In this document: positions 12,987 through 28,997 of the stretch, one piece after another
Layout: every line of letters begins with the position of its first letter
Position numbering within the stretch: the stretch's first letter is position 1
DNA from: an uncultured bacterium
Lineage (GTDB): Bacteria; Patescibacteriota; Minisyncoccia; Minisyncoccales; RBG-13-42-11
DNA length: 64,000 nucleotides
Assembly (NCBI GenBank): GCA_963790795.1
Contig: CAWBPO010000001.1
Span: 396,073-460,072 of the forward strand
Direction: 5' to 3'
Notes under the pieces: generated by a model
What the model saw: the letters and a program-made list of their open reading frames with translations, nothing else
Told to the model about the DNA's origin: nothing
Database searches by the model: none
Made by a program: the position numbers and the translations under genes

Positions 12987-12995
12987 TAATCTAAG

Positions 12996-13119: not shown

Positions 13120-14307
13120 ATGTTGAATAAATTGGCGAAAATTTCTACTCTTCTTTTTTTAATTGTGATGATAGCGGTTGCTTTTGGTTGCGGTTTTTGG
13201 TTCGGCAAATCCCAGGTTGTTTGTCCGGTTTGCCCTCCGGAAGATCTGGATTTCTCGCTTTTTTGGGAAACTTGGCAAGCTATCCGGGATAAATACGTAG
13301 ATAAAGACAAATTTAATGTTCAGGAAATGATTTACGGAGCAATCTCCGGCATGGTGGATTCTTTGGACGACCCTTACACTGTTTTTTTAAAGCCTGATGA
13401 CGCCAAAAGATTTATTGAAGACGTGAAAGGAACTTTTGAAGGCGTGGGTATGGAAATCGATATCAGGGACGGTCAGCTGCAAGTAGTTGCTCCTTTGGAA
13501 GGAACGCCAGCTCAAAAAGCAGGACTGAGAGCTGGAGACAAGATTATTAGCGTTGACGGAAAACCAACTGCTGATATGACAATAGATGAAGCAATAAGCC
13601 TGATTCGCGGGCCCAAAGATACGGAAGTCGTTTTAACGATTAACAGGGAAGAATGGGAAGAGACCAAAGACATTAAAATAGTAAGAGGAGTGATTGATAT
13701 TCCTTCTTTGAAACTGGAAATCAGAGATGACAATATCGCTTATCTGAAGCTTTATCAGTTTTCTGAAATAGCTTCTTTTGACTTCGGAGAAGCAGCCATT
13801 GAAATATTGAACAGCGACGCCAAGAAAATCATCTTAGACCTCAGGAATAATCCTGGTGGATATTTGGAAGTTGCTCATGATATTGCCGGCTGGTTTTTGG
13901 AAAAAGGCCAGGTAGTGGTTACTGAGGATTTTGGTGAAGGAAAAGAGCAGGAAATATATCTGGCCGAAGGCAATGCTAAATTGCTCACTTATCCTGTGGT
14001 AATATTGATTAACAAGGGTTCAGCTTCCGGTTCTGAGATTTTAGCAGGAGCTTTAAGGGACAACCGGGGAGTAAAGCTGATAGGCGAAACCTCATTCGGC
14101 AAAGGGTCTGTCCAGGAATTGACTGAATTAAGAAGCGGTTCTTCTTTGAAAGTGACCATTGCCAAGTGGCTAACTCCTAAGGGCGACTTCATTACTGACA
14201 AAGGCCTGGAACCTGATATAATAGTAGAAATGACGGATGAAGATTATAATTCAGGCTTGGATCCCCAGCTTGATAAAGCAGTTGAAATAATAAAAGAATT
14301 GAATTAA
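13120..14307 (+). CDS. S41-family carboxy-terminal processing peptidase with PDZ domain
   Basis: 395 aa; N-terminal TM/signal; PDZ (GTPAQKAGLRAGDKIISVDG); GSASGSEILAGALRD and FGKGSVQ catalytic regions. Confidence 0.85.
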   Translation: MLNKLAKISTLLFLIVMIAVAFGCGFWFGKSQVVCPVCPPEDLDFSLFWETWQAIRDKYVDKDKFNVQEMIYGAISGMVDSLDDPYTVFLKPDDAKRFIEDVKGTFEGVGMEIDIRDGQLQVVAPLEGTPAQKAGLRAGDKIISVDGKPTADMTIDEAISLIRGPKDTEVVLTINREEWEETKDIKIVRGVIDIPSLKLEIRDDNIAYLKLYQFSEIASFDFGEAAIEILNSDAKKIILDLRNNPGGYLEVAHDIAGWFLEKGQVVVTEDFGEGKEQEIYLAEGNAKLLTYPVVILINKGSASGSEILAGALRDNRGVKLIGETSFGKGSVQELTELRSGSSLKVTIAKWLTPKGDFITDKGLEPDIIVEMTDEDYNSGLDPQLDKAVEIIKELN

Positions 14308-14319
14308 GATTATATAATT

Positions 14320-14772
14320 ATGAAAGTTATTTTATTAAAAAACGTTGAAAAGGTGGGAAAACAGTTTGAGGTCAAGGAAGTTAAAGACGGCTATGCCAGG
14401 AATTTTTTGATTGACAAAGGCTTGGCAAAACCAGCTACTGAAGAAGCTTTGAAATGGCTTGAAGTTCAGAAAGAAATTCAAGAAAAAAAAGCTGAGGACG
14501 AATTGAAGAAAGCTCAGGAGCTTGCCTCAACCGTTGATGATATGGAACTTACCATTCCAGTAAAGGTTGGAGAAGAAGGACAGCTGTTTGAGTCGATTAG
14601 CGCTCAAAAGATTTCTGATAAATTGAAAGAAATGGGTTTTGACGTGAAGAAAAGCCAAATTGAATTAGCAGAATCGATTAAAGAGATTGGAGAGTTTCCA
14701 ATTAAAATTAAACTTGAGCACAATTTAGAGGTCGAAATCAGAGTGATACTTACTAAATTAGAGGATGAGTAG
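14320..14772 (+). CDS. rplI: 50S ribosomal protein L9
   Basis: 150 aa; [31 protein letters not shown]-terminal signature. Confidence 0.9.
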
Positions 14773-14774
14773 GT

Positions 14775-16430
14775 ATGGCTCGATTTATTTTCATTGCAGG
14801 CGGAGTGATGTCCGGCATCGGCAAAGGAGTGGCTACAGCTTCAATCGGAAAGATTTTGCAGGGCAAGGGTTTTAAAGTAACAGCAGTAAAAATTGATCCT
14901 TACATAAATGTTGATGCGGGGACGATGAATCCCATAGAGCACGGAGAGGTTTTCGTGACCAAAGACGGAGTGGAATGCGACCAGGACGTGGGCAATTACG
15001 AAAGGTTTTTGGACGAGGAATTGACCACGGAAAACTATATCACCACTGGCCGCGTTTACGAAACAGTCATTCGCAAAGAAAGGAATTTAGAATACGGAGG
15101 CAAATGCGTGGAAGTCGTGCCGCATATTCCGAATGAAGTGATTTCCCGCATCCAGAAGGCCGCCAAAAAAACCAAAGCTGAGTTCGTTTTGATAGAAATT
15201 GGCGGAACAGTCGGAGAATACCAGAACCTTTTGTTTCTGGAAGCAGCCAGAATGATGAAACTGCAACATCCAAAAGATGTTCTTTTTATTTTGGTCAGCT
15301 ATTTGCCGATTCCCAACATGATTGGAGAAATGAAAACCAAGCCGACCCAGCACGCTGTCAGAACTTTAAACTCTGCCGGTATTCAGCCGGATATTATCAT
15401 TGCCCGTTCGGAAGTGGCACTTGACCAGCCGAGAAAAAAGAAAATATCCATTTTCTGTAATGTCCAGGAAGAAGACGTTATTTCCGCCCCTGACATCAAG
15501 TCAATTTACGAGATACCGATTAATTTTGAAAAAGACAACTTGGGAAAGATGATTTTGAAGAAATTCGGACTGAGGACAAGGAAAGAAAACTTGAAAGACT
15601 GGCAAAGACTGGTCAAAGTTATCAAGACCGCCAAAAAAACAGTGAAAGTCGGCATTGTCGGCAAATATTTTGAAACGGGAGATTTCACTTTGGCTGATTC
15701 CTACATTTCCATTATTGAAGCTGCAAAGCACGCTTCCTGGTTCTATAAATTGAAAATAGAATTATCCTGGTTATTAAGCGAATCTTACGAGAAAGACTCC
15801 GGGAAACTAAAAGAGTTGAAGAAATTAAACGGCATCATCGTGCCTGGCGGATTCGGGAACAGGGGAACGGAAGGAAAGATAAAAGCGATTGAGTACTGCA
15901 GAAAGAATAAAATTCCTTATCTTGGACTTTGTTTTGGCATGCAACTGGCAGTGATTGAATTTGCCAGAAACGTTTGCAAAATGAAAGACGCCAATACAAC
16001 TGAGATTATCAAACATTGTAAATATCCTGTTATTGACACTCTTCCCGAACAAAAAGCTTTAATTCAGGAGAAAAAATACGGGGGAACAATGAGACTGGGA
16101 GATTATCCGTGTTTGATTAAAAAAGGAACCATTGCTTATTCTGCTTACTTGAAATCCCGCTGGGGCAAGCAAAACAAAAAAGGCGATATTCTGGTTAAAG
16201 AGAGACATCGTCACAGATATGAGTTGAACAATGAATTCAGGAAAGAGCTTGAAGATAAAGGTTTAATAATGTCAGGCATCAATCCTGAAAGAGATTTGGT
16301 GGAGATCATTGAAATTAAAAAACATCCCTTTTTTGTGGGAAGCCAATTCCATCCTGAATTTAAGTCAAAGCCTTTGAATCCGCATCCTTTGTTCAGGGAG
16401 TTTATAGCGAGTTGCGCTCGATATAAGTGA
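14775..16430 (+). CDS. pyrG: CTP synthase
   Basis: 551 aa; FIAGGVMSGIGKGV N-terminus; glutamine amidotransferase GLCFGMQ and HRHRYE motifs. Confidence 0.95.
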   Translation: MARFIFIAGGVMSGIGKGVATASIGKILQGKGFKVTAVKIDPYINVDAGTMNPIEHGEVFVTKDGVECDQDVGNYERFLDEELTTENYITTGRVYETVIRKERNLEYGGKCVEVVPHIPNEVISRIQKAAKKTKAEFVLIEIGGTVGEYQNLLFLEAARMMKLQHPKDVLFILVSYLPIPNMIGEMKTKPTQHAVRTLNSAGIQPDIIIARSEVALDQPRKKKISIFCNVQEEDVISAPDIKSIYEIPINFEKDNLGKMILKKFGLRTRKENLKDWQRLVKVIKTAKKTVKVGIVGKYFETGDFTLADSYISIIEAAKHASWFYKLKIELSWLLSESYEKDSGKLKELKKLNGIIVPGGFGNRGTEGKIKAIEYCRKNKIPYLGLCFGMQLAVIEFARNVCKMKDANTTEIIKHCKYPVIDTLPEQKALIQEKKYGGTMRLGDYPCLIKKGTIAYSAYLKSRWGKQNKKGDILVKERHRHRYELNNEFRKELEDKGLIMSGINPERDLVEIIEIKKHPFFVGSQFHPEFKSKPLNPHPLFREFIASCARYK

Positions 16431-16450
16431 CTCCGTCATTATCAGGGCAG

Positions 16451-16723
16451 CTATTCGACGTTAACAATTTTGGCAATTTTTTGAGAGCCGTCAAAATTCT
16501 TTTTCCTTTTGGTTTTAAATTTAACTACGCCTTCTTTTAAAGCAAAAAGAGTGTCATCGTTGCCTCGTTTGACATTTTTTCCCGGGAAGAATTTGGTGCC
16601 TCTTTGTCTGACGATAATACCGCCAGTTTTAACTTTTTGTCCGGCAAAAAGCTTTATTCCTAAGTATTTAGGCCCGGAATCCCTTCCCAGTTTAGTTGAT
16701 CCTGCAGCTTTTGTTTTTGCCAT
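16451..16723 (-). CDS. rpmA: 50S ribosomal protein L27
   Basis: 90 aa; [45 protein letters not shown]. Confidence 0.95.
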
Positions 16724-16776
16724 AGTGGTAATACTTAATTAGTCGCAACTAATCAGCAATAATCAGTAATATTAAA

Positions 16777-16956
16777 ATGTTATCAAAAATAATTCATTTT
16801 GTCAAAGACCATAAAGTCGATATAATCTTAGTTGTCGGCGTTATTTTAATCTCTTTGCTTTCTTTTGCTTTGGGATATATTATGGCAAAGCAGCAGGAAA
16901 AAGGACCGATTAAAATAGAGTACCAAGCAGATAATTTTGAAGATAAAAGCCTATGA
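16777..16956 (+). CDS. Small single-pass membrane protein (59 aa), below ORF-track cutoff
   Basis: Hand-translated MLSKIIHFVKDHKVDIILVVGVILISLLSFALGYIMAKQQEKGPIKIEYQADNFEDKSL; stop overlaps next ATG (ATGA at 16953-16956). Confidence 0.45.
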   Translation: MLSKIIHFVKDHKVDIILVVGVILISLLSFALGYIMAKQQEKGPIKIEYQADNFEDKSL

Positions 16957-17888
16957 AAACAGCTATTGTCGGAGCAGGCATTAACGGGCTTTATTTGGCT
17001 TGGCGTCTTTCAAATAAAGGCAATGAAGTGGTTGTTTTTGAGAAAAAAGACAAAATAGGAAAAGAAGCCTGTTCTGGATTGTTCAGTCAGAGAATTTTAA
17101 AGTTTATTCCTCAAAGCAAAAAATTGATTCAAAATAAGATTAATTCCGCTTTGATTCATTTTCCGAGAAAAACTTTGAAAATTATATTTTCCAAAAGCTT
17201 TTTCGTAATGAGCCATTTTGAACTTGATAATTTAGCGGCTGGTTTGGCGGAAAAATCAGGCGCAAAAATTATGCTGAAGCATGCTGTAACCGATGTTCCT
17301 GCGTTAAAAGAAGATTTTGAAAGAATTATTGGTTGCGACGGGCCGAATTCCGTAATCAGAAAAAGCTTGGGGTTAAAACAATTGGATGTACGTTTGGCTA
17401 TTCAGGGGTTTTTAGCAAAAGAAGATGATTCTGATATTGTTGAAACCTGGCCGATAAATAATGGTTTTATTTGGAAGATTCCCAGAGTTAAAGAGATTGA
17501 ATACGGTATAATCGGAAATCCAAAAGAAGCAAAGCCCATATTTGAAGAATTCTTGAAGAAAAACAATATTCATTTGGAAAGAATATTTTCAGCTGTTGTC
17601 TCTCAGAGTTTTCTTTTTTCTTCCAGAGAGAAAATAACTCTTTGCGGCGATGCGGCCGGCCTTTGCAAGCCTTGGTCGGGCGGGGGAGTGGTCTGGGGTT
17701 TGATTGCCGCAGATTTGCTCTTGAAAAATTTCCCTGATTTTTTAAAATATATCAAAGCAGTAAAGATTTTTTTTATTCCGCGCATTATCTTTTCAAAAAT
17801 TGCCGTTAAAATAGTTTATTTCCTTGGATTTCATTTGCCTTGGATTCTGCCAAAGAAAATTAAAATTGAAAGCGACTTCTTAATTTAA
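16953..17888 (+). CDS. FAD-dependent oxidoreductase, geranylgeranyl-reductase-like
   Basis: 311 aa; Rossmann IVGAGINGLYLA...VVVFEKK; GDAAG motif (LCGDAAGLCKP); next to uppS. Confidence 0.65.
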   Translation: MKTAIVGAGINGLYLAWRLSNKGNEVVVFEKKDKIGKEACSGLFSQRILKFIPQSKKLIQNKINSALIHFPRKTLKIIFSKSFFVMSHFELDNLAAGLAEKSGAKIMLKHAVTDVPALKEDFERIIGCDGPNSVIRKSLGLKQLDVRLAIQGFLAKEDDSDIVETWPINNGFIWKIPRVKEIEYGIIGNPKEAKPIFEEFLKKNNIHLERIFSAVVSQSFLFSSREKITLCGDAAGLCKPWSGGGVVWGLIAADLLLKNFPDFLKYIKAVKIFFIPRIIFSKIAVKIVYFLGFHLPWILPKKIKIESDFLI

Positions 17889-17891
17889 AAT

Positions 17892-18593
17892 ATGTTAAAA
17901 CACATAGCTATTATTCCTGATGGCAACAGGCGCTGGGCGCAAAAAAAAGGCCTTAGGCTTTGGATTGGCCACCGGGAAGGAGTGAAGACCATAGAGAAAA
18001 TTTTAGAGAAAAGCCGAGAACTGAAAATCCCATATATTACTTTTTGGGCCGGTTCTTGGGATAATCTGACTAAAAGGCCAAAAAAAGAGGTGGATTTTTT
18101 ATTTAAGCTGTATACCGAACACTTTCAAAGAATAGCTAAAGATGAAGAAATTCACCAGAATAAAGTGAAGATTAATGTTCTTGGCCGCTGGAAAGAAGTT
18201 TTGCCAAAAAAAACAAAAGAGGCGATAAGAAAATCCATGGAGGCGACAAAAAAATACAATAATTATTTTTTAACTTTTCTTTTGGCTTACGATGGAACTG
18301 ATGAGATGCTGGATTGTTTTCAGAAGATTGTTAAACTTTGCCGGAGAAAGAAAATAAAAATCAGCAAAAATTTAATTAAAGAAAATCTTTGGACAAAAGA
18401 TTTGCCGGCTGTTGACCTGGTTATCAGAACGGGCTGCGAGAGCGACCCGCACATATCTGCCGGCTTTATGATGTGGGATACAGCTTACTCTCAGTTTCAT
18501 TTCACAAAAACACTTTATCCTGCTTTCACTCCGAAAGAGTTTGAAAGAATAATTAAAGATTATTCCAAAAGAGAAAGAAGATTGGGTGCTTAA
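17892..18593 (+). CDS. uppS: Isoprenyl transferase (undecaprenyl-diphosphate synthase)
   Basis: 233 aa; HIAIIPDGNRRWA and RTGCESD...SAGFMMWD motifs; C-terminal ERRLG. Confidence 0.9.
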   Translation: MLKHIAIIPDGNRRWAQKKGLRLWIGHREGVKTIEKILEKSRELKIPYITFWAGSWDNLTKRPKKEVDFLFKLYTEHFQRIAKDEEIHQNKVKINVLGRWKEVLPKKTKEAIRKSMEATKKYNNYFLTFLLAYDGTDEMLDCFQKIVKLCRRKKIKISKNLIKENLWTKDLPAVDLVIRTGCESDPHISAGFMMWDTAYSQFHFTKTLYPAFTPKEFERIIKDYSKRERRLGA

Positions 18594-18855
18594 ACGAAAA
18601 ACCCGCCGTAAGGCAGGTACAACCCCGCAAGCGGGATTAGTTTTCTCTTAAAATTAAGACGTTTTAACTTGATATTTATTACACTATTATTTTAGAGTTA
18701 GTGTCAAGTTTTTTTGAGAACTTGATTTTTTTATTATTTTTTTGTATATTATTATTAGCTTATTTATACGCAGCTGGATTTCCGGGAATGGAAATTTTTG
18801 ACACAAATAAAGCCTGCCCTTTGATAATTTAAAAAATAAATGGAGGTGAAAAAAA

Positions 18856-19722
18856 ATGACAGTAAAGGTAGTAACCGACAGCGGAGCCGATATTCCGAAG
18901 GAAATCATGGAGGAATTGGGAATTAAGACTGTTCCTTATCTCGTCCAGTTTGGTGGTGAGACACGCCGGGATAGAGTTGACATCACACCAGAGGAGATTT
19001 ATCAACGGCTGGAAGAATCACTTAAAGAAGGGCCCCAACTAACAACTTCCGCTCCTTTTCCAAAAGATTTTATTGATATTTACCAAGAATGTGGAGCAGA
19101 TGGAATTATTTCAATTCATCTTACGGGAAAACACAGCGCTACTTATGACTCAGCTCTTAATGCCAAAGCAATAGTTGAAGAAGAAAAGAAATGCCAATAC
19201 CACATTGAGGTGATTGATTCTCGGTTAATAGTGATGGGAATGGGCTTTTTGGCGATTTTAGCTGCTGAATTAGCTAAAGAAGGGAAGAGTTTAAAGGAAA
19301 TTGTCAAAGCAGTGGAAGATGCTATTCCTAAGATTCATCTTTTGTGTGTTTTAGACTCTCTAAAATATGTTGAAAAAGGAGGAAGATTAGGGAAAGTTGC
19401 TCTTCGAGCTGCTCAAGCCGCGACTAGTATGCTTAACTTAAAAGCTCTTTTAACTCTAAAAAAAGGGGAAATTTCTTTTGCTGGAGTTGTCAGACCAAAC
19501 AGAAAAAAAGAGAGGCTAATGGAATTTATCAGTAGCTTTACCAGAGTAAAGGAAGCGGCAGTGGAATATACTGCAGCTAAAGACAAGGGAGAGGCCGAGG
19601 ATTTGCTTGAAACGATAAATCATCTCTTTCCGGGAGTTCCTCTTTATTTGTCTCAAATTAGTTCAGTTATCGGCGTTCATTCGGGCCCCGGCGCTTTAGT
19701 AGTCGCTCTCAGAGAAGAATAA
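18856..19722 (+). CDS. DegV-family fatty-acid-binding protein
   Basis: 288 aa; VKVVTDSGADIP start, TTSAP, SSVIGVHSGPGAL C-terminal pattern; GGAGGTG RBS upstream. Confidence 0.85.
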   Translation: MTVKVVTDSGADIPKEIMEELGIKTVPYLVQFGGETRRDRVDITPEEIYQRLEESLKEGPQLTTSAPFPKDFIDIYQECGADGIISIHLTGKHSATYDSALNAKAIVEEEKKCQYHIEVIDSRLIVMGMGFLAILAAELAKEGKSLKEIVKAVEDAIPKIHLLCVLDSLKYVEKGGRLGKVALRAAQAATSMLNLKALLTLKKGEISFAGVVRPNRKKERLMEFISSFTRVKEAAVEYTAAKDKGEAEDLLETINHLFPGVPLYLSQISSVIGVHSGPGALVVALREE

Positions 19723-19755: not shown

Positions 19756-19795
19756 AGCCGCCCGAGTAGGATAAAACCCAAACGGCGGCTTTTTA
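19756..19795 (+). terminator. Terminator after degV
   Basis: AGCCGCC ... GGCGGCT stem (large loop) followed by TTTTT; abuts left inverted repeat. Confidence 0.5.
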
Positions 19796-19809
19796 TTGTG
19801 CGACATTAA
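19793..19809. repeat. Left copy of perfect 17-bp inverted repeat TTATTGTGCGACATTAA
   Basis: Exact reverse complement found at 21848-21864. Confidence 0.9.
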
Positions 19810-19912
19810 TAGGGAACAAGGGCAAAATAGGGAAGAGGGTAGTTTTATACTATTGAAGATGTAACTAGGCTAAAAAGGCCTATTTTGGCCTAAAAATAAG
19901 GGGGGAATAGGG

Positions 19913-20404
19913 CTATTTTATAAGGTGTTCCAATACAGCCTCAGCAACAGGAATCCACTTGGGAATCCTGTTTTTTTTGCTTTTGTACTGCTGGGCTGTT
20001 TTCTGGATAGTTATTAGCCGCTTGAACAAGTCTTTAGGCCACTGACTGAGAGCTTTGCCTTTGTTTTGGTAAAGAATTCCAATTGCTTCAGACCATAATT
20101 CAAAATCTTTCTTTTTATGTCCAGAAAGAGGATATTTTTCAAAAAACTTAACAATTTTATTATAAAGTTCATCAATGTTTTGAACAGAATATCTCAATTG
20201 GGTTCCAGTGATATAGTGCAGCCGGCCGCATTCCAAGACATCTTTGACTTTTTTCAGCAAATCCTCCTTATCAACAGAGCCGACAATGACAAACTGCGCT
20301 TTCCAGCAGTAATATGTGGGAGAGTTGGTTCTTTTGTGCTTAACATCTCTGCGGAACTGCAGGTCAAAACAGCCGGTTTCATTGACTATTTTGGTTATAT
20401 TCAT
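19913..20404 (-). CDS. LAGLIDADG-like (single-motif, I-CreI-size) homing-endonuclease-family protein
   Basis: 163 aa; degenerate N-terminal motif ITKIVNETGCF (compare LAGxxDGEGCF); FFEKYPLSGHKKKDFELW resembles the conserved core; 5 nt downstream of the recombinase gene. Confidence 0.5.
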   Translation of the reverse strand: MNITKIVNETGCFDLQFRRDVKHKRTNSPTYYCWKAQFVIVGSVDKEDLLKKVKDVLECGRLHYITGTQLRYSVQNIDELYNKIVKFFEKYPLSGHKKKDFELWSEAIGILYQNKGKALSQWPKDLFKRLITIQKTAQQYKSKKNRIPKWIPVAEAVLEHLIK

Positions 20405-20409
20405 AATTA

Positions 20410-21357
20410 TTAATTTTTAATACCATGGTATTTTCGGTGTATTTCTCTCAATTGAGGTCTTGTGACGTGAGTGTAAATCTGGGTTGTAGCAATATTTCGA
20501 TGTCCCAAGAATTCCTGGACTATTCTGATATCAACTCCTTTATTTAAAAGATCAGTAGCAAAGCTGTGGCGCAAAACATGGGGAGTGGTAGTAATCGGAC
20601 AGCCAGCCATTAAAGCATATTTTTTCACTGAGCTTTCAATTGCCCGGGCGCTTAGCCTTCCGCCAGCTTGTTTTTTTGGGCCTTTGTAGTTTATAAACAA
20701 AGCTTTTTCTTTGTCTTTGCGAGTTTCTAAATATTTTTTGAGCCAACTCAAAGCTCTTTCTGAAAAGTATATTGTACGAGGGTGGCTTCCTTTGCCAATA
20801 ATGCCCAATTCTAAATCTTTCTTGTCTTTTATATTAGTGAATTGTTCTCGATTTAAAGCCACTAATTCAGCTATTCTTAATCCGGCAGAGAAAAAACTTT
20901 CCAAAATAGCCCTGTTTCTAAGTCCGGTTCTAGTTTTTATATTTGGAGTTGATAAAAGCTTTTTAACCTGATCCAAATCAAGGAACTTTATAGACCTTTC
21001 TTTTTCTTTTATCAGTTTTATCTTTCCAGCGGGCAAAGAAAGTATGTCGCGGTCTGCAAAGAAATTTAACAAATTCCTTACGACAATCAAATAATAGTTC
21101 TGAGTAGATCTTTTTATTGGTTCTTTAGTGGTTCTATTGAATGACTGCGATAGGAAAATCCTATATTTTCTTATATGTTCTTCAGTTAATTCGTGGGGGA
21201 GCAGTTTGCCTAAATTATTACTTTCCAGCCAGCGAGAGAACTTAGCCAGAGATTTGCCATAAGTTTCCTGACTTTTATTGCTTAATCCTTTTTCTATGTC
21301 TAAATATTCTTTAAAATCCTCAATGTGGCTGATTATGGGTTGATTGTCTTTTTTCAT
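20410..21357 (-). CDS. Tyrosine site-specific recombinase (XerC/XerD/integrase family)
   Basis: 315 aa; N-terminal SAM-like core-binding domain; catalytic R (GLRIAEL), HVLRHSFAT (HxxR), LGHRNIATTQIYTHV (H...Y). Confidence 0.9.
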   Translation of the reverse strand: MKKDNQPIISHIEDFKEYLDIEKGLSNKSQETYGKSLAKFSRWLESNNLGKLLPHELTEEHIRKYRIFLSQSFNRTTKEPIKRSTQNYYLIVVRNLLNFFADRDILSLPAGKIKLIKEKERSIKFLDLDQVKKLLSTPNIKTRTGLRNRAILESFFSAGLRIAELVALNREQFTNIKDKKDLELGIIGKGSHPRTIYFSERALSWLKKYLETRKDKEKALFINYKGPKKQAGGRLSARAIESSVKKYALMAGCPITTTPHVLRHSFATDLLNKGVDIRIVQEFLGHRNIATTQIYTHVTRPQLREIHRKYHGIKN

Positions 21358-21477
21358 AGGGGCATTTCGGTTGTTATTGTATACTGCGGTAAAGCTACAT
21401 TATGCGAAGTATCCCACATTCACAATATCAGGCCCAAAAGGCCTGTCAAGTGCTCCCCTCAGCGTTTGTCTTTATAT

Positions 21478-21755
21478 AAAAAAACGAAGGGACCCACAAG
21501 AGAACAAATAAGGGGTCCCATAACTCTAATATTGACTGAATATAGGAGTTTTTGCCATCATTATGGCGAGTATATTTTAAGAAAGAGCATTTAGTGTGTT
21601 TTAAAGGAACTTTGAAATTTGGTGAAGAGAGGGATTGGGTTGCAAGTGTTTGCTCCGCCAGGATATATTAATCCTTTACATGGGAGTTTTAGGATCCAAA
21701 TCCCTCTCCTGGGAGATTCGCCTCCTCCTTGTGCTTTGAATTAAGCTAACCTCCT
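21478..21755 (-). ncRNA. Candidate non-coding transcript (about 275 nt) between a consensus promoter and an internal terminator, upstream of the recombinase gene
   Basis: No ORF despite AGGAGG motifs; 10-bp long-range stem GAGAGGGATT/AATCCCTCTC (about 21627-21711); GGGACCC-N17-GGGTCCC hairpin plus U-run at 21476-21519. Confidence 0.35.
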
Positions 21756-21761
21756 ACTTTA

Positions 21762-21790
21762 ATTATAATTTTCCACAGACATACTGTCAA
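21762..21790 (-). promoter_or_regulatory. Consensus sigma-70 promoter (minus strand)
   Basis: TTGACA (21790-21785), exactly 17-nt spacer, TATAAT (21767-21762), verified base by base. Confidence 0.65.
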
Positions 21791-21797
21791 GTGTACT

Positions 21798-21840
21798 AAA
21801 AAACAAAAACCACCAGAGTTCCCTTCTCTAGTGGCTGGTG
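21798..21840 (-). terminator. Rho-independent terminator (minus strand) after the gltX/small secreted gene unit
   Basis: CACCAGCCACTAGAG...CTCTGGTGG imperfect hairpin followed by TTTTTGTTTTTT on minus strand. Confidence 0.55.
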
Positions 21841-21847
21841 TCCAATT

Positions 21848-21864
21848 TTAATGTCGCACAATAA
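21848..21864. repeat. Right copy (reverse complement) of 17-bp inverted repeat
   Basis: TTAATGTCGCACAATAA is the exact reverse complement of 19793-19809. Confidence 0.9.
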
Positions 21865-21915
21865 TATATATTAACAAGAGATTGTCTGTAATTTGTTTTG
21901 TCAGAATTTCTTCCG

Positions 21916-22287
21916 TCATTTTATTAATTCTTTAAATTTATTCCACAGATATGACGCCCCGCTTTTTGTTTCCTGTTGCATTTCTTGTTTTTCTCCTGGA
22001 AAGCTTTCTTTAATGAATGATTTTCTTTTTTCAACTTCAGGCTTCAGCCAGTTTTTAATTTTAGAGCCAAAATGCGAAAGAAGCCAGTTCCACATTTTTT
22101 GCCAGATAGGCAGAATGTTTTCGTTCCACATTCTTTCAATTAATCCTGGCATTTGTTCTTCGCTTTCTTCAAATAATTTTTCGCCGAACTCTCCGGCTTC
22201 TTCCATGGTTTCCGGTATTTTCTGGGCGAATGAAAAATTGGGCGACAGCAGGCAAACTATTATTGAAATTACGATTATGTTTTTCAT
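21916..22287 (-). CDS. Small secreted protein, unknown function
   Basis: 123 aa; signal peptide MKNIIVISIIVCLLSPNFSFAQ; Trp/Glu-rich mature part; 1 nt after gltX stop. Confidence 0.5.
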   Translation of the reverse strand: MKNIIVISIIVCLLSPNFSFAQKIPETMEEAGEFGEKLFEESEEQMPGLIERMWNENILPIWQKMWNWLLSHFGSKIKNWLKPEVEKRKSFIKESFPGEKQEMQQETKSGASYLWNKFKELIK

Positions 22288-22288
22288 T

Positions 22289-23767
22289 TTAGAAAAGCTC
22301 TTTGGCTTCCCGTATTCTTTTTAATGTTTTTTCCTTCCCTAAAATTTCAGCTATTTCAAATGGTCCGGCTGAAGCTTCCTTGCCAGTAAGCGCCACTCTC
22401 AAGGGCCAAAGCAGCGCTCCCCTATTGTTTGTCTTTTCCGCTTCTTCCAGTAAGACGCTTTCCAGTTTTTCTTTGTTCCAATCCTCGTTTTTTATCTTAG
22501 ATAACAATTTTTCCAGCTTGTTAAGAGAATCTTTTGTTTCCTTATCAGACATCTCTTTCCATTTTAACAGATTTTTGTCAAACTCAAGCTTGTCTTTGAA
22601 GAAAAAGTCAGTCAATTCAACGATTTCTGACAGTTTCTTCAATCTTTCTTGATAAATTGAAACGATTTTAACCAAATTATCAGAATTATCTTTTTCCACT
22701 AATCCTGCTTCAAGAAGATAAGGAAGGCAGAGCTCAGTCAGTTTTTCCGGAGAGCGCTGGCGGATGTAAAAGCCGTTTAAAAAGTCCAGCCTTTTGATAT
22801 TGAAAACAGCTCCGCCTTTTTGGATTCTTTCCAAGGAAAACTCCTTAATCAGAGAAGGTAGAGAATATATTTCCCTTTCGTCTCCGGGATTCCATCCCAA
22901 AAAAGCCATAAAATTAACCAGGGATTCAGGCAGATACCCTTCTTTTCTGAATTCGGAAACTGAAGCCGCTCCCTCTCTTTTACTTAATTTTGCCCTATCT
23001 TCTCCCAGAATAAGGGGCAAATGAGCATACAAAGGCCGAGGAAAGCCCAAAGCTTCCTGAATTAAAATCTGCTTTGGAGTGTTGGAAATATGGTCTTCTC
23101 CCCTGATTACGTGGGAGATTTTCATTTCAAAATCGTCAATTATCACAGCGAAATTGTATAAAGGAGCATCCAGGTTTTTAGCAATGACCATATCCCCTAT
23201 TAAAGAGGTGTCAAATTCCAATCGGCCACGTATCAGGTCGTCAAAGCTTATCTTTTTTAGAATAACCCTGAATCTAATTATCGACGGTTTGCCTTCAGCC
23301 AGATATTTTTTAACGGTTGCTTTGTCCAAATTGGCGCATTTGCCGGAATAATGAGGAGCCAGTCCTTGTGACATTTGATATTGTCTTTCAGCTTCCAGGT
23401 CTTGTTCCGAACAAAAACAATAATAGGCCTTATCTTCGGCAATCAGTTTTTCTATATATTTTCTGTAAATATCTGTTCTTTGAGTTTGTCTGTAAGGGCC
23501 GTATTTTCCTTCAATATCCGGTCCTTCGTTCCATTCAAGGCCAAGCCATTTTAAATTTTCAATAATGTCTTGCTCAGATTCTAAAGATGAACGTTCCAGG
23601 TCAGTATCTTCAATTCTCAAAACAAAACTGCCTTCGTGTTTTTTGGAAAAGAGATAGTTGAAAAGAGCGGTTCTGGCCAAACCAAGGTGCAGGTATCCTG
23701 TCGGCGAGGGCGCAATTCTCGTTCTCACTTCGCCTGGCTTGATAAACTTAAATTCTTCGCTGGTCAT
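22289..23767 (-). CDS. gltX: Glutamate--tRNA ligase
   Basis: 492 aa; RIAPSPTGYLHLG (HIGH-type) and KLSKR (KMSKS-type) motifs. Confidence 0.95.
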   Translation of the reverse strand: MTSEEFKFIKPGEVRTRIAPSPTGYLHLGLARTALFNYLFSKKHEGSFVLRIEDTDLERSSLESEQDIIENLKWLGLEWNEGPDIEGKYGPYRQTQRTDIYRKYIEKLIAEDKAYYCFCSEQDLEAERQYQMSQGLAPHYSGKCANLDKATVKKYLAEGKPSIIRFRVILKKISFDDLIRGRLEFDTSLIGDMVIAKNLDAPLYNFAVIIDDFEMKISHVIRGEDHISNTPKQILIQEALGFPRPLYAHLPLILGEDRAKLSKREGAASVSEFRKEGYLPESLVNFMAFLGWNPGDEREIYSLPSLIKEFSLERIQKGGAVFNIKRLDFLNGFYIRQRSPEKLTELCLPYLLEAGLVEKDNSDNLVKIVSIYQERLKKLSEIVELTDFFFKDKLEFDKNLLKWKEMSDKETKDSLNKLEKLLSKIKNEDWNKEKLESVLLEEAEKTNNRGALLWPLRVALTGKEASAGPFEIAEILGKEKTLKRIREAKELF

Positions 23768-23771
23768 CTTT

Positions 23772-24905
23772 TTAATTTTCTAATTTATTAAGATATTTGA
23801 CAAGATATTCGGCAATCTTTTTTCCCGCTTCAATTCTGGAAAATGCTTTTGCCTTTTCAGCCATTCTTTTCAATTCTTCTGGCTGATTGAAAATCGTTTT
23901 TAATTTTTCCAGAAAAAGGCTGGCAGTAAAATTGTTTTCTTCTATTACCAAACAAGCTCCGTTTTCCTGAAAAGAATAGGCGTTTTTCACTTGATGGTTT
24001 TGGGCAGCTTCCGGCAAAGGAATGAGAATGGAAGGCTTGCCAGCAGCTGCAATTTCAAAAATGCTTCCAGAGCCTGCCCGGCTGATAATCAAGTCAGCTG
24101 CAGCATATGCTCTTCGCAGTTCCGGCTCTTTCAGAAAAGGAAAAAGATGGTAAAAAGCTTCCTCACTTCTGCCGATCACCGCTCTTGCTTCTGCTTTGGT
24201 CGTTTTAAAGTTATTTTCGCCGCATTGATGAATCAATTCAAAGTCTTTTAAAAGTTGCGAGAGAATTTCCAGGATTTTGTCGTTAATTCTTTGCGCTCCC
24301 TGCGAACCGCCCAAAATCAAAATGACGGGTTTTTTTGAGTTAAGATTGAAAAACTTTTTAGCTTCGTCTATTTTGTTGTCCAACAATTCTTTTCTTGTCG
24401 GATTGCCCACCAGAATCATTTTCTCCAGAGGAAAATATTCTGTTTTTGGAAAAGAAACAAAAATCTTAATGGCAAAATCACTTAAGAATTTATTGGCTGC
24501 TCCCGGAGTAACGTCAGATTCGTGAAGAAAAACCGGCACAAAAAGAAGTTTGGCGGCGATAACCACCGGAATTGAGCCGAAGCCACCCTTGGAAAAAACC
24601 AAATCAGGAGAAAGAAAGAAAATATGGAAAAACGATTGTATAATGCCTATCGGTATTTTTATGCAGAGATCAACGAAATTTTTTAAAAGAGTTTTCCAAT
24701 CTAAATATCTTCTGACTTTTCCGGCCAGAATAGTTTTTATCTTAATATCTTCTTGTGAAAGCAAAACAGAGCCGAATTCGTCTTTCGGACCGACAAAGAA
24801 CAATCTTAAATCTTCTGGCTGGCAGATTTTCCTCAGTTCCCTGGTTATGGCGACGATTGGTACGATGTGGCCGCCCGTTCCGCCGCCGGTAAAAAGTATT
24901 TTCAT
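23772..24905 (-). CDS. murG: UDP-GlcNAc:lipid I N-acetylglucosaminyltransferase MurG
   Basis: 377 aa; GGGTGGHIVP N-terminus; ISRAGSGSIFE C-terminal region; dcw context. Confidence 0.9.
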   Translation of the reverse strand: MKILFTGGGTGGHIVPIVAITRELRKICQPEDLRLFFVGPKDEFGSVLLSQEDIKIKTILAGKVRRYLDWKTLLKNFVDLCIKIPIGIIQSFFHIFFLSPDLVFSKGGFGSIPVVIAAKLLFVPVFLHESDVTPGAANKFLSDFAIKIFVSFPKTEYFPLEKMILVGNPTRKELLDNKIDEAKKFFNLNSKKPVILILGGSQGAQRINDKILEILSQLLKDFELIHQCGENNFKTTKAEARAVIGRSEEAFYHLFPFLKEPELRRAYAAADLIISRAGSGSIFEIAAAGKPSILIPLPEAAQNHQVKNAYSFQENGACLVIEENNFTASLFLEKLKTIFNQPEELKRMAEKAKAFSRIEAGKKIAEYLVKYLNKLEN

Positions 24906-24945
24906 ACTTCGATAAACTCAGTATGACCCTGAACTTGTTGAAGGG

Positions 24946-26061
24946 TCATGTAGTTTTAGATATATTTAATAATATTCCTGATCCGATCATGGTCATAATA
25001 AGCGCAGAGCCGCCGTAGCTGATAAAGGGCAAAGGAATGCCGGTTATAGGCAAAAGTCCTATCATTGCTCCGATATTGATAAAAGCTTGAATGGCAATCC
25101 AGGAAGTAATGCCAACAGCGCTCAATTGCAAAAACGCGTCTTTACTGTCTCTAGCTATTTTAAACCCTCGCCACAAAAAGAGCAAAAAAAACATAATTAA
25201 AACCAAACCGCCGACAAATCCTGTTTCTTCTGAAAAAACAGCGAAAATTGAATCTGAAAACGATTGTGGGAGGAATCCGAACTTTTGAATGCCCATTCCC
25301 AGGCCAGCTCCGGAAATTCCGCCAGAGCCCACAGCAATCAAGGACTGTTTTAACTGGTAGCCTATTCCCATTGGGTCTATTTCCGGATTGAAGAATACCA
25401 ATAGCCGATTGGCGCGATAAGGAGCTATTTTGGCCAGGACAAATATGGCTGTCATGCCCAGCAATCCTGTTAAAGCAGTCTGGAACAAAGGAGTGTTGGC
25501 GGAAAAATACATTATGGCGACAACAATGAATATGATCGCCAAAGTGCTGATATCCGGCTGGAAAACCAAAGTTAAAGCGACAATGCCGAAAATAACGAGA
25601 AAGACGATAAAAGTTTGGCTGAATTTCTTTTTATCTTTGTTTTGAGAAGGCACTTTACTGGCCAGCCAGGCAGCCAAATAAAGAATAAAAGTCAATTTTA
25701 GAAATTCAGAGGGTTGAAAAGTTACAGGTCCCAAACTTAGCCATCTGGCCGCCCCTCCAATTTTCAAGCCGATTCCCGGGATAAAGACTATTAAAAGCAG
25801 AGCCAAAGTTCCGAAAAGCAAAAAAGGAACCCATTTTTTCAAAAGAGAAAGCTTAATTTTGTAGAAAAACAAGCCCAAGATTAGCCCCGGAATCAGACCG
25901 AAAATAATCTGGTGCTGGAGAAAGCCGAAAGTGTTGCCGAATTTTTCCTGTGAATAGGGGGCGGAAACGCTTGCTAATATGACAATTCCAAAAGCCAGCA
26001 AAAAAACTATTGCTCCCAGCAGAATATAATCGGGATGGTTATATTTTTTTTCCAAGGGCAT
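24946..26061 (-). CDS. ftsW: SEDS-family lipid II flippase/peptidoglycan polymerase FtsW
   Basis: Polytopic membrane protein; LPITGIPLPFISYGGSAL signature; start moved to ATG 26061 (MPLEKK...) because the longer ORF overlaps murD extensively. Confidence 0.85.
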   Translation of the reverse strand: MPLEKKYNHPDYILLGAIVFLLAFGIVILASVSAPYSQEKFGNTFGFLQHQIIFGLIPGLILGLFFYKIKLSLLKKWVPFLLFGTLALLLIVFIPGIGLKIGGAARWLSLGPVTFQPSEFLKLTFILYLAAWLASKVPSQNKDKKKFSQTFIVFLVIFGIVALTLVFQPDISTLAIIFIVVAIMYFSANTPLFQTALTGLLGMTAIFVLAKIAPYRANRLLVFFNPEIDPMGIGYQLKQSLIAVGSGGISGAGLGMGIQKFGFLPQSFSDSIFAVFSEETGFVGGLVLIMFFLLFLWRGFKIARDSKDAFLQLSAVGITSWIAIQAFINIGAMIGLLPITGIPLPFISYGGSALIMTMIGSGILLNISKTT

Positions 26062-27319
26062 ATTTTCTTGCGTATTTTTTAAACAGATTCCCCTTTTCTT
26101 CGTAATCTTTAAAAATGCTGAAACTGGAAGAAGCAGTTGAAAGAAGACAAATCTTGTTCTTTTCCGTATATCGGTATGCCAGCTTAACCGCATCTTTCAT
26201 ATTGTTTGCGAAAAACGGTTCGATGTGACTCATCGCAGGATGTTTTTGTCGAAGAGCTTTATCCTGAGCTTGTCGAATGGATTTCCAAATCTTTTCTCCT
26301 GTTGTCGGAAACAAAATAACGGTTTTTATCTTGCTTTTTAAAACCTTTCCAGCCAGTTTTTTAAAATCAATGTTTCTGTCAAAGCCGCCGAGCATAATTG
26401 TTTCCACTTTATTTCCCAAAGCTTTCATGGCTGATATTGTTGCTTCCGGAATAGTGGCTAAAGCGTCATTGTAAAAAGTGATTCCTTTATAAGTTCCCAC
26501 TAATTCCAATCTGTGAGGCAAGGGCTTGAATTGTTTTATTGCTTTTTTAATTGTCTTTTCCGGAATTTTGAAAACTTTGGCAACTGCTCTGGCTGCTGTT
26601 TTGTCCAATTCATAGTATTTTCCTTTAATCGGGATTTTCTTAGCTTTTGATTGTTTGGCGAAAGCTTTAACTTTTTTATCCTGGGAATTAAAAATTAAGA
26701 AATCTTCTTTTTTTTGATAGCGAGCGATATTTGCTTTAGCTGATGCATATTCTTTAAAGCTGCGGTAATAATCCAAATGTTCCGGGTAAATATTCAGAAA
26801 TACGGCAACCTGGGGAGATTTCTTAAGATTGTATAATTGATGACTGGAAAGCTCATATACATAAATATCTTTGTTTGTTGCTGAAGACAAAAGATTTAAA
26901 ACCGGCTTTCCGATATTGCCGACCAGGTGAACTTTAAACTTTCCTTTCTTTAATATCTGGAAAATCAAAGAAGCAGTAGTGCTTTTTCCTTTGGTGCCGG
27001 TAACCCCGATAATCTTGCCAGGACAATTGTTAAAGAAAATCTCAGTTTGGGAAGTGATTTTACTGAGAGCTATTTTGGGCAATATTTTGAAAGGAATGCC
27101 CGGTGATTTTATAATCACATCGTAATCTTTAATCGCCTTGAGATAGTTTTTACCGAAATGCTTTTTAATTATTTTAAACTCAACTTTAATTTGCTTTCTA
27201 TCTGCTATTCCCAACACTTTATTCGGGAACATTTTCCTGAAAAACAAAAAAGCGTCTCTCCCCTCTTTGCCGAAACCAAGAATCAGAATACGCTTGTTTT
27301 TAAATTCATTTAACAACAT
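26039..27319 (-). CDS. murD: UDP-MurNAc-L-alanine--glutamate ligase MurD
   Basis: 426 aa; GVTGTKGKSTTASL P-loop; Mur ligase C-terminal HRLE region. Confidence 0.9.
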   Translation of the reverse strand: MLLNEFKNKRILILGFGKEGRDAFLFFRKMFPNKVLGIADRKQIKVEFKIIKKHFGKNYLKAIKDYDVIIKSPGIPFKILPKIALSKITSQTEIFFNNCPGKIIGVTGTKGKSTTASLIFQILKKGKFKVHLVGNIGKPVLNLLSSATNKDIYVYELSSHQLYNLKKSPQVAVFLNIYPEHLDYYRSFKEYASAKANIARYQKKEDFLIFNSQDKKVKAFAKQSKAKKIPIKGKYYELDKTAARAVAKVFKIPEKTIKKAIKQFKPLPHRLELVGTYKGITFYNDALATIPEATISAMKALGNKVETIMLGGFDRNIDFKKLAGKVLKSKIKTVILFPTTGEKIWKSIRQAQDKALRQKHPAMSHIEPFFANNMKDAVKLAYRYTEKNKICLLSTASSSFSIFKDYEEKGNLFKKYARKYALGKKI

Positions 27320-27354
27320 CTTGTCTTAAAAATACCATAAATTTAAGCTTTTTC

Positions 27355-27390
27355 AAACGAAAAAAGCCCATTGCGCGAACACAATGGACC
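27355..27390 (-). terminator. Rho-independent terminator after the small membrane gene
   Basis: CCATTGTG-TTCG-CGCAATGG (one G-U) followed by GCTTTTTTCG on minus strand. Confidence 0.55.
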
Positions 27391-27478
27391 GAGATTAGGG
27401 AGGAGACAAAGCAGCAGTGGGTATGGTAAAAGGTGCTATGGTAATTGTTTTGGGCTGCTTTGCCTCCATGCGAGTTGC

Positions 27479-27709
27479 TTAGGGCTTTAGCTTACGATCG
27501 CAAAAAGCTATCAGGCCGGCCAAGATAATAGTTATGGCGAGGGCCCACGTTGCCACGATCCATAAAGGAGTGGTTCCGGGGATAAAACAATCGCCACCGG
27601 CCAGACAACTAACAGTTGTATACTTTGTACTAGCAAAGTACAAAGCTCCGGTAGTCGCTAGTCCTATAGCAAGAATGATTTTTGAAGGAGCAACTATTAA
27701 ATTTTTCAT
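27479..27709 (-). CDS. Small two-helix membrane protein, unknown function
   Basis: 76 aa; AGGAGGT RBS upstream; two hydrophobic helices flanking CLAGGDC; visibly more GC-rich than neighbours. Confidence 0.45.
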   Translation of the reverse strand: MKNLIVAPSKIILAIGLATTGALYFASTKYTTVSCLAGGDCFIPGTTPLWIVATWALAITIILAGLIAFCDRKLKP

Positions 27710-27733
27710 TAAAACTTACCTCCTATGCTTTAA

Positions 27734-28996
27734 TTATACCATCTTTTTAACTTTTGTCAATAGATAAGGAACTTTGTTTTCTTTTTTCGCTTTCTGCAAA
27801 CTCAGCTTTAAAGCGAGCAGACTTTCTTTTTTAGTCCCCACGCATTCAAAAGGCTTCGCTCTCCCCTGCCCTATTAAAGATTTCATTGTTGGTAGTAATC
27901 TTTTGTTTTCAAAAATATCTTTTCCAAAAATCAAAAGCAATTGTTTTTTATTTAAAAACGGATACAGAGTCAGATAAACAAACAAGCATTTCGGGCAGTT
28001 CCCGCACCACCTGACCTGTTTTGCCCCAATTCTCATGCTGGCATTGCAGCTGGAAAAAACTGGAAAATACTGAGGATATTTAATCAGCATTTTGGATATT
28101 TGAAGCTCAGTATATTTTCTTAAAAAACTGAAATAATTTACATTTTTTACCAGATATTTTTTGCAGTATTTTTTGAACATTATTTCAAATTGGGAGCTTT
28201 TTGCCCACTGGTGATTTATTGTTCTGCCAAGATACTTTACGTTTCCATCATTGGCGCTTTTTTCGTTTGAGAAAACAACATTTTTGTAATCAAACAAAAC
28301 AGCGCAAAAAACGCTCAAAAAAGACAAAAGCGCGGTAAAAGGAGTATGGCCGTTCAAGTATCCTTTCTTGTTCAGTTTTAAAAGTTTTTTGTCAATTATC
28401 CTTTTAACGATAATTTGTTTTTTTACGGCTGATACTTTAGCTGCTTTTTTGATCTGCTCGTTGGGGTTTACTAAAAACAAAGCTGTTTTTGATTTTTTAT
28501 TTAAAATCTCAAGAGTTACAATTGAATCCCTGCCTCCGGAAAAAGGCACCAAATACCTGTTTTTAAGCTTTCCGCTGAATGTCTTGTATTTATTCTTGCT
28601 TTCACATTCTATTGTTAGAAAGTTTTTAGATCGCCAGTCAATCTTGTTTTCGTAAAAAAACTGGCCCATGCCCTTAATAATCAAATCTTTCCACCAGCGG
28701 ATTTGCCCTTTATCCAAAAAACCAGCTTTGATGATAATTTTCGGAGAACAGGTTGCTTTCCAGTAAGTCGGAATTTCCATCAATCCTAAATGGAAAATCA
28801 AGTTTTCCAATATGTTGAAGTTAGACTTCAACAGGCTTGAGCGGCTTATATTTTTGATTTTTATTTCCGGTTTGAAATAAATATCAGGTTCGATTTTAAA
28901 ATCAAAAAAAACCTCTAAGTTGTTTCCAGAGATTCTGTAAGAATATTTCTCAAAAACAAACTTTGGATATTTTTTTATTAATTCTTGGAGTTTCAT
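27734..28996 (-). CDS. PP-loop (SGGxDS) ATP-pyrophosphatase-fold protein; candidate MurL-type UDP-MurNAc-L-Ala-L-Glu epimerase
   Basis: 420 aa; LVPFSGGRDSIVT PP-loop; C-terminal CGNCPKC; sits between mraY and murD. Confidence 0.5.
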   Translation of the reverse strand: MKLQELIKKYPKFVFEKYSYRISGNNLEVFFDFKIEPDIYFKPEIKIKNISRSSLLKSNFNILENLIFHLGLMEIPTYWKATCSPKIIIKAGFLDKGQIRWWKDLIIKGMGQFFYENKIDWRSKNFLTIECESKNKYKTFSGKLKNRYLVPFSGGRDSIVTLEILNKKSKTALFLVNPNEQIKKAAKVSAVKKQIIVKRIIDKKLLKLNKKGYLNGHTPFTALLSFLSVFCAVLFDYKNVVFSNEKSANDGNVKYLGRTINHQWAKSSQFEIMFKKYCKKYLVKNVNYFSFLRKYTELQISKMLIKYPQYFPVFSSCNASMRIGAKQVRWCGNCPKCLFVYLTLYPFLNKKQLLLIFGKDIFENKRLLPTMKSLIGQGRAKPFECVGTKKESLLALKLSLQKAKKENKVPYLLTKVKKMV

Positions 28997-28997
28997 T

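Follow-up and report, generated by a model that had tools for sequence, protein, structure and literature searches.

Layout of the locus

We analysed a stretch of 64,000 nt (the window) of the 538,786-bp contig CAWBPO010000001.1, from an uncultured bacterium of the Patescibacteriota, in which a gene for a Xer-family tyrosine recombinase (xer) lies between two inverted copies of a 17-mer whose core, ATTGTGCGACATT, we call M2. All long open reading frames (ORFs) of positions 1–19722 are on the plus strand and all those of positions 19913–37652 on the minus strand. The 17-mer, TTATTGTGCGACATTAA, is found exactly at 19793..19809 on the plus strand, pointing right, and its exact reverse complement at 21848..21864 on the minus strand, pointing left; both copies face a dif-like site described below. 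The repeat can be extended to 26 nt at 85% complementarity. With up to three mismatches allowed, the window contains four matches to the 17-mer as against 0.24 expected from shuffles, and the two flanking copies are the only exact ones. Weak M2-like matches (1–3 mismatches) at 4738–4754 (plus strand), 9859–9875 (minus strand) and 42959–42971 (minus strand) are probably due to chance; the first lies within a Mur-ligase ORF and the second is misoriented for the chromosome arm on which it lies.

Inside the repeats, and all on the minus strand, are xer (20410..21357), a LAGLIDADG-family gene that starts 5 nt past the xer stop codon (LAG-B, 163 aa, 19913..20404) and a non-coding transcription unit (21478..21755). 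A first-pass annotation of this DNA had described the inverted repeat bracketing these three elements, which exact matching confirmed, and the AGGGAA(C/G) motifs that it placed just inside both ends are present there. It had seen no target-site duplication, and the outer flanks indeed differ (...GGCGGCTTT on the left, TATATATTAAC... on the right). The terminator that it assigned to each inner end stood at the right end, where a scan called the hairpin of the operon formed by gltX and a small gene (21798..21836, minus strand; 21836..21808, then a T-run), with a purine-rich loop, GAGAAGGGAAC. It did not stand at the left end, where reading by eye gave only a weak 5-bp hairpin, AGGCC-AAAATA-GGCCT, and four T (19871..19891, minus strand) 3' of the LAGLIDADG gene; the terminator scan made no call on this hairpin. 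It is a possible terminator of the xer-LAGLIDADG unit, and an equivalent hairpin, AGGCCTTTTTT, stands behind the xer stop codon in the LAGLIDADG-less relative L086/L087 (related loci are given by their L numbers).

The recombinase is a protein of 315 aa, identified by Pfam, structure and NCBIfam matches. It matches Pfam Phage_integrase at E=1e-37 and has a SAM-like domain at its N-terminus. Residues R161, K189, H260-x-x-R263, H286 and Y295 are invariant in 26 homologues, which bears out the complete R/HxxR/Y catalytic set reported at first pass. Among solved structures, E. coli XerD (1a0p, E=1.8e-35) is matched best and XerA next, while the XerH structure is matched at E=1e-11. Among NCBIfam models XerC (218 bits) and XerD (214 bits) score highest and XerS scores 98 bits. 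Since the XerC and XerD scores are nearly equal and each falls under its equivalog cut-off, we assign the protein to the Xer family and, strictly, to neither XerC nor XerD. It is encoded by the one xer gene within the window and, on these matches, is the chromosome's own housekeeping-type Xer-family enzyme.

The dif-like site and the replication terminus

Comparison of the region upstream of xer across related loci revealed a dif-like site, ATACTTCGCATAA-TGTAGC-TTTACCGCAGTAT (21381..21412, minus strand), in the xer leader and 24 nt before the ATG. The related loci came from a profile scan (one genome per species), a metagenome-contig scan and look-ups of LAGLIDADG homologues. The site is a 13-6-13 palindrome at ~+3 to +34 of the predicted leader and has the make-up expected of dif, namely two imperfect inverted arms of ~11 bp that are 6–8 bp apart. 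Its position is conserved in L002–L005, L009, L082–L088, L118–L120 and L127. The match to classical dif (E. coli GGTGCGCATAATGTATATTATGTTAAAT) covers the left arm and the spacer, with CGCATAATGTA as the common stretch, and the version found in L010/L011 has 16 consecutive bases, CGCATAATGTATATTA, in common with E. coli dif. A scan placed the xer promoter (TTGACA-16-TATTGT, extended TG) at 21422..21449 on the minus strand, and the promoter element CTTGACAGGCCTTTTGGCCTGnTATTATGAATATAG is conserved across the loci. Both this true dif site beside the gene and the replication-terminus position of the segment, considered below, had been missed at first pass.

Among distant loci of Saccharimonadia type (L021 402, L023 5591, L030 9953, L047 9974), ATGTCGCACAAT coincides with or overlaps the predicted start of the xer homologue. 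No full dif site was recognised in these distant loci, which carry no weight here.

The adjacency of dif and xer is, by sequence, the gene-next-to-site layout known from two single-recombinase systems, XerS/difSL of streptococci and lactococci and XerH/difH of Helicobacter and Campylobacter: difSL directly precedes xerS where the GC skew shifts (PMC1914069), and difH is near xerH (PMC5357621). As in those systems, gene and site form one module at the skew shift, with dif immediately upstream of the recombinase gene and its arms asymmetric. The locus described here differs from them in that its protein (~315 aa) is closer to XerC, XerD and XerA, in that its dif is close to the classical site in left arm and spacer, and in that two extra conserved half-sites bracket the module. 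Flanking half-sites have not, to our knowledge, been described for XerS or XerH. By analogy with known systems, resolution of chromosome dimers through FtsK-dependent recombination at dif is predicted for the locus. The placement of dif in the leader of xer suggests autorepression: Xer on dif would resolve dimers and probably shut down its own promoter.

The segment sits at the replication terminus, judged by the skew and by a switch in motif polarity, both in the window and in related loci. The cumulative GC skew of the window has its maximum at ~20–21 kb, and among 28 loci of the clade the peak is no farther than 600 bp from the xer start in 17 and no farther than ~2.3 kb in 23. Because GC skew is confounded in part by gene orientation, strand-polar oligomers were examined as well. 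When the window and 21 related loci are counted together, TAGGGGA is distributed 64:1 and ATAGGGGA 38:0 between the leading and lagging strands. The motif [ATC]AGGGGA occurs 7:0 (plus:minus) to the left of 19790 and 1:16 to the right of 21871 in the window, ranging over 1549–19463 on the plus strand and 22424–59525 on the minus strand. From 37.7 to 44.6 kb it stays on the minus strand (0:4) despite the presence of plus-strand genes, unlike GAAGAAG, which tracks gene orientation there.

The innermost polar copies, TAGGGAAC/TAGGGAAG at 19810/19828 on the plus strand and GAGGGGAG at 21459 on the minus strand, bracket xer and dif. Those on the left are matches to TAGGG[GA]A within a G-rich run, TAGGGAACAAGGGCAAAATAGGGAAGAGGGTAG (19810..19842, plus strand), that contains near-copies of the polar NAGGGGA motif pointing toward dif; a G-rich tail of this kind also stands behind M2 in L144 and L002. 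The copy on the right (21453..21459, minus strand) is just upstream of the xer −35 element and points left to dif, and a TAGGGGA-type copy takes this place in nearly all related loci. NAGGGGA behaves as a chromosome-arm polarity motif that converges on the segment, and for this clade it is a candidate of the kind of the FtsK-orienting polar sequences (KOPS). Its closest parallels are KOPS and the SpoIIIE recognition sequences (SRS), together with the dif activity zone, as known from E. coli and B. subtilis: it is G-rich, strongly biased to the leading strand and flips at dif, and in one testable stretch its polarity is independent of gene orientation. It differs in sequence from GGGNAGGG and GAGAAGGG, and its recognition by FtsK here is a candidate function only.

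The flanking M2 half-sites

M2 is conserved beside xer in more than 25 related loci. Taken in xer orientation, 13 copies are upstream on the plus strand and 23 downstream on the minus strand, with one exception, and 36 of the 37 point inward. Conservation extends over ~20 nt, (T)TAAT-ATTGTGCGACATT-TAAT, which are near-invariant across xer genes only 56–89% identical, and is greater than that of dif. The upstream copy usually lies 0–16 nt past the stop codon of the small gene (54 nt in the window). Toward dif, ~12 nt past M2, there is usually a terminator hairpin with a purine-rich loop, CCGTTAG-GGTAGGGAAC-CTAACGG-T(n), on both sides and in many loci; its form in the window is CCACTAGAGAAGGGAACTCTGGTGG at 21808–21836. 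Two downstream copies each are present in L002, L083 and L107. The two copies evolve together in some genomes, being identical 17–19-mers in the window and in L007 and sharing an ACAGA variant in L143. Variant M2 was considered as a mark of LAGLIDADG-carrying loci and dropped, since the LAGLIDADG-less L086/L087 carry a variant too.

The identity of M2 is indicated by five genomes (L007, L102, L105, L106, L117) in which its reverse complement is found at the dif position as the left arm of a complete site, with a partner arm, TAAAGCGAC, 5–6 nt off (for example AATGTCGCACAAT-GAAGG-TAAAGCGAC). L007, whose xer is 61% identical to that of the window, also carries this core on both sides of xer, in an inverted repeat of 19 bp. 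Across 36 copies of M2 itself, the positions that a partner arm should occupy, on either side, have an information content of zero. A degenerate partner arm beside the window copies was sought by eye and rejected, with 2–4 matches of 13. Because M2 matches the dif left arm and has no partner arm, we regard it as a half-site. The first-pass annotation had offered two recombinase half-sites as one of three options and had remarked that the core recalls Xer/dif arms, and on both counts it was essentially right.

Its other two options, a small mobile or integrative element and an invertible segment, were weighed against the arrangement of related loci. In ~40 loci with xer 46–89% identical to that of the window, gltX is upstream of xer on the same strand, L010 alone being rearranged, and it is often trailed by a small secreted gene before xer. 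The far flanks are syntenic in relatives, with S41 peptidase-L9-PyrG-FAD oxidoreductase-UppS on one side and small gene-GltX-MurG-FtsW on the other. The gltX-xer arrangement is, on this comparison, vertically inherited. Terminal inverted repeats around a recombinase and a nuclease-like gene, at a site between convergent operons, are what a small element with its own recombinase and homing endonuclease would display, but such an element is extremely improbable here. Both flanks are syntenic, no empty site was found among the ~40 related loci, and the recombinase, always present at the site, is a Xer of housekeeping type that has a dif site. Moreover, target-site duplication is absent, the window has no further exact copy of the 17-mer, and the base composition of the segment is the same as that of its surroundings. 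Conserved synteny with vertical inheritance is also what the first-pass annotation had itself named as refuting a mobile or an invertible element. Nor is the pairing of recombinase and LAGLIDADG gene the undescribed element type that it had suspected, but a housekeeping Xer with a sporadic, horizontally moving endonuclease gene behind it. An inverted repeat, a recombinase and a nuclease gene together need not equal a mobile element.

Inversion of the 2-kb segment by the enclosed recombinase, with the repeats as functional recombination sites, is very unlikely. It would fit a perfect inverted repeat around a tyrosine recombinase gene and the joint evolution of its arms seen in the window, L007 and L143. 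However, no inverted orientation was seen among the ~40 related loci, gltX and xer being co-oriented in all save the rearranged L010, and the five assemblies with the LAG-B arrangement (L082–L085, L144) all keep the orientation of the window. The partner arm is missing at both repeats, in the window and in relatives, and therefore neither end of the segment is a complete recombination site. Because there are terminators at both inner ends, inversion would also alter nothing outside the segment.

We instead consider it likely that this is a chromosome-dimer-resolution locus at the terminus of a Patescibacteria chromosome (Nealsonbacteria/Paceibacteria-like), comprising Xer and its leader dif bracketed by M2 docking half-sites. 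As a terminus module with flanking oriented half-sites, it would be a variant of the known Xer/dif kind. Among named relatives, a Nealsonbacteria MAG is nearest, at 91%. Our literature search found no paper on dif sites, Xer systems or terminus organisation in Candidate Phyla Radiation (CPR)/Patescibacteria. For M2 the closest parallel is provided by the XerD sites (XDS) of B. subtilis, which PMC11840125, citing Karaboja 2021, presents as dif-like sites in the terminus where XerD unloads Smc-ScpAB. XDS are likewise dif-related terminus sequences that are incomplete as recombination sites, and M2, a dif-arm sequence without a partner arm in the terminus region, is XDS-like in this sense. M2 differs from XDS in its number (just two copies, 0.4–1.6 kb from dif in the window), its strictly inward orientation, its coupling to terminator hairpins and its resemblance to the left (XerC-side) arm, and the role we give it here is putative. 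Karaboja and colleagues, in 2021, are said to have described XDS as XerD half-sites.

By analogy, we infer that the M2 copies are non-recombining, XDS-like docking half-sites for Xer. Xer monomers would bind M2 without recombining, and Xer so bound would mark or insulate the dif zone, for instance by docking or unloading SMC or by forming a roadblock, after the Bacillus XDS. The geometry would also fit obstruction of FtsK or of replication forks, or pairing of M2, as a 'split dif', with the true site. If this is correct, non-recombining Xer docking, so far a matter of Bacillus XDS, may be older and more widespread, as oriented and near-invariant half-sites suggest. The locus would also supply a dif consensus, a KOPS-like candidate (NAGGGGA) and a terminus marker for CPR genomes, with which assemblies of uncultured lineages could be checked and oriented.

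Several points count against this picture. Besides the partial confounding of GC skew, the polarity test at 37.7–44.6 kb is based on four sites only, and Xer binding to M2 is argued from sequence identity with dif arms alone. M2 is almost invariant, whereas dif left arms vary between genomes, and another, more conserved protein could therefore be what reads M2. M2 is also near-palindromic (ATTGT-GCG-ACAtT), which would suit a dimeric binder too. Finally, at L008 11057–11086, between xer and LAG-B, two back-to-back M2 copies form a perfect palindrome of 30 bp, ATTATGCGACAATATATATTGTCGCATAAT, an arrangement outside the predictions of a half-site model; flanking M2 copies are absent elsewhere in that locus.

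Reading of M2 by a protein other than Xer could take the form of a polar fork barrier, akin to a Ter-like trap around dif, or of a LAGLIDADG recognition site, and we regard either as distinctly unlikely. In B. subtilis, rtp with the TerI/TerII inverted repeats is an instance of inverted protein-binding sites at the terminus beside the gene for a DNA-binding protein, and an inverted, inward geometry around a sharp skew switch is what a fork trap would be expected to show. The likeness is one of geometry only, as the locus has no evident homologue of RTP or Tus. For an endonuclease, a pseudo-palindrome of ~20 bp is of a size to fit a homodimeric LAGLIDADG enzyme, endonuclease genes lie within ~100 nt of the downstream M2, and the invariance of M2 beside variable dif arms is again in favour. 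Yet most loci without any LAGLIDADG gene do possess a conserved M2, whose conservation must therefore serve the host. The same sequence is, moreover, demonstrably part of dif in the five genomes mentioned above.

Variable genes within the M2-bounded interval

The non-coding unit between the upstream M2 and dif encodes a structured RNA (21478..21755, minus strand, terminator included), recognised from its promoter and terminator, its fold and its homologues. A scan found its promoter, TTGACA-17-TATAAT, at 21762..21790 on the minus strand, with 12 of 12 positions of the sigma-70 consensus and conserved in homologous loci; the terminator, GGGACCC...GGGTCCC-U7, is near 21478–21520. There is no minus-strand ORF of at least 40 aa in the unit, and the fold has a z-score of −2.85. 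Promoter, terminator and fold together uphold the promoter-to-terminator non-coding unit proposed at first pass.

Homologues occupy the same place in ~10 distinct loci (nhmmer, 13 matches including near-identical loci), among them L083 7635–7859, L092 3407–3629, L099 7014–7214, L100 7546–7788, L101 7227–7431, L106 7698–7870, L107 7555–7802, L125 7589–7888 and L129 837–1041. Members of the family are 170–300 nt in size, with their own consensus promoter and terminator. Each homologue folds separately into a G-rich/C-rich closing helix of 12–17 bp despite unlike sequences (for example GGAGAGGGAUU/AAUCCCUCUCU versus GGUGAGAGGGGUUG/CAACCCCUCUCGCC), after which comes a conserved single-stranded (U)AGUCCUUUnACAA. 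The helix is based on these independent folds and on duplex energies; RNAalifold returned 0 pairs on two MAFFT alignments of the homologues (A2, A4) of poor quality, which is why no formal covariation statistic is given. Rfam searches of the whole window and nine related loci at gathering thresholds, and of the region and L101 at permissive E-values, returned tRNAs only. When the RNA body was sought in L002–L012 with blastn and nhmmer, only its dif-proximal part was matched.

The slot from the upstream M2 and its terminator to the xer promoter holds unrelated protein genes at L003 3969–4715, L094 5554–6300, L097 7321–8001, L105 7386–8001 and L007 1442–2013, as well as in L089–L091, and almost nothing in L086. 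Since the slot elsewhere holds unrelated ORFs or almost nothing, the RNA is to be seen as cargo that stands outside the Xer machinery. It is one of several interchangeable cargos between M2 and dif, and the interval near the terminus is a hot spot of gene turnover.

Turnover is also seen behind xer. LAG-B matches Pfam LAGLIDADG_1 (PF00961, E=1.1e-14), in keeping with the 163-aa LAGLIDADG-like ORF noticed at first pass 5 nt behind the recombinase, and its family profile matches the structures of I-PanMI (E=1.7e-24) and I-OnuI. The VDGEGSF of I-PanMI corresponds to VNETGCF in the window, with Thr at the catalytic-acid column, where distant members of the family have Glu. The window LAG-B is without an acidic catalytic residue in this column, for which the neighbouring Glu might substitute. 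LAG-B is found in ~8 of the ~45 loci with enough downstream sequence, always directly behind xer, and its ratio of non-synonymous to synonymous substitution rates (dN/dS) of 0.09–0.15 indicates purifying selection. Between the window and L144, LAG-B is 81% and xer 66% identical, and between the window and L083, LAG-B is 61% and xer 84% identical; this discordance of identities, and of the LAG-B tree, with xer points to horizontal movement. On this evidence, LAG-B is a free-standing, horizontally moving gene of homing-endonuclease type in a hot spot after the xer stop codon. In the close LAGLIDADG-less relative L086/L087, the xer stop codon, a terminator, a C-rich tract and the downstream M2 follow one another uninterrupted. 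A LAG-B homologue also occurs in L141/L142 (6001–6489, on a 785-kb contig of a Staskawiczbacteria-like genome) at the same synteny boundary, beside FAD oxidoreductase-L27-PyrG-L9-S41, with no xer, M2 or dif adjacent.

A second single-motif LAGLIDADG gene, LAG-A, has an intact LAGFIDGEGY motif and an ATG inside the last xer codons. It is found alone in L099 (~8362–8787) and L125 (~9006–9431) and in tandem with LAG-B in L083 (8932–9429), L084 (1090–1590) and L085 (1335–1814), and this tandem is possibly a natural heterodimer. The sporadic occurrence of LAG-B, the discordance of its tree with that of its neighbour and its purifying selection are features shared with the free-standing homing endonuclease genes of T4-like phages (seg, mob). 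LAGLIDADG genes are also known within rRNA insertions of CPR bacteria (PMC11270868). Common to these known genes and to those behind xer are insertion beside highly conserved host sequence and competition of unrelated nucleases for the slot. LAG-B is unlike them in being chromosomal and without an intron or intein, at the 3' end of xer, in having Thr for the catalytic acid and in having, in some genomes, LAG-A as a tandem partner. A hot spot in the xer 3' flank would mean that selfish nucleases of very small genomes exploit conserved stretches of the chromosome other than rRNA genes.

The variety of cargo bears on whether the M2 copies could be remnants or hybrid sites that arose when Xer inserted gene cassettes beside dif, the interval being a cassette hot spot as with the integrative mobile elements exploiting Xer (IMEX) or the dif modules of Acinetobacter. 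Cargo between the upstream M2 and dif varies as set out above, cargo between xer and the downstream M2 varies as well, and the doubled downstream M2 of L002, L083 and L107 would suit this explanation. We nevertheless think it unlikely. A sequence of ~20 nt that hardly changes while xer diverges is too well conserved for a relic, and its orientation is constant in all copies but one. M2 has no second arm, and the cargos are not flanked by the direct repeats of full sites that Xer integration leaves. IMEX and dif modules have their cargo between complete dif-like sites, whereas there is one complete site per locus here. In addition, neither the M2 18-mer nor the dif 21-mer of the window was found in viral contigs.

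A further proposal, which retains docking half-sites and extends the argument to the genes behind xer, is tentative and rather doubtful as a whole. It holds that the locus is a compact, self-contained terminus module, with Xer encoded between inward, high-affinity M2 half-sites that it would bind without recombination. The half-sites would unload SMC in the manner of XDS, stop translocases or forks, or pair as a 'split dif' with the real dif, and at least three unrelated endonuclease families would have come to home to the conserved DNA of the module. Within such a module, LAG-A and LAG-B, each with a single LAGLIDADG motif, may pair naturally as a heterodimer. In other loci the place directly behind xer is taken by a 176-aa ORF (L143 5474–6004, L089 ~8968–9453, L090 ~7820–8335, L091 ~2474–2959, L094 ~7294–7521) with a faint PD-(D/E)XK signal only (Pfam E=0.098). 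In L089 and L090 this slot also holds a second Xer-family paralogue (L089 9485–10417, L090 8348–9280), in tandem with and downstream of the first and within the M2-bounded interval. The paralogue is 56–57% identical to the window xer, and the two tandem genes may form a XerC/XerD-like pair in that lineage.

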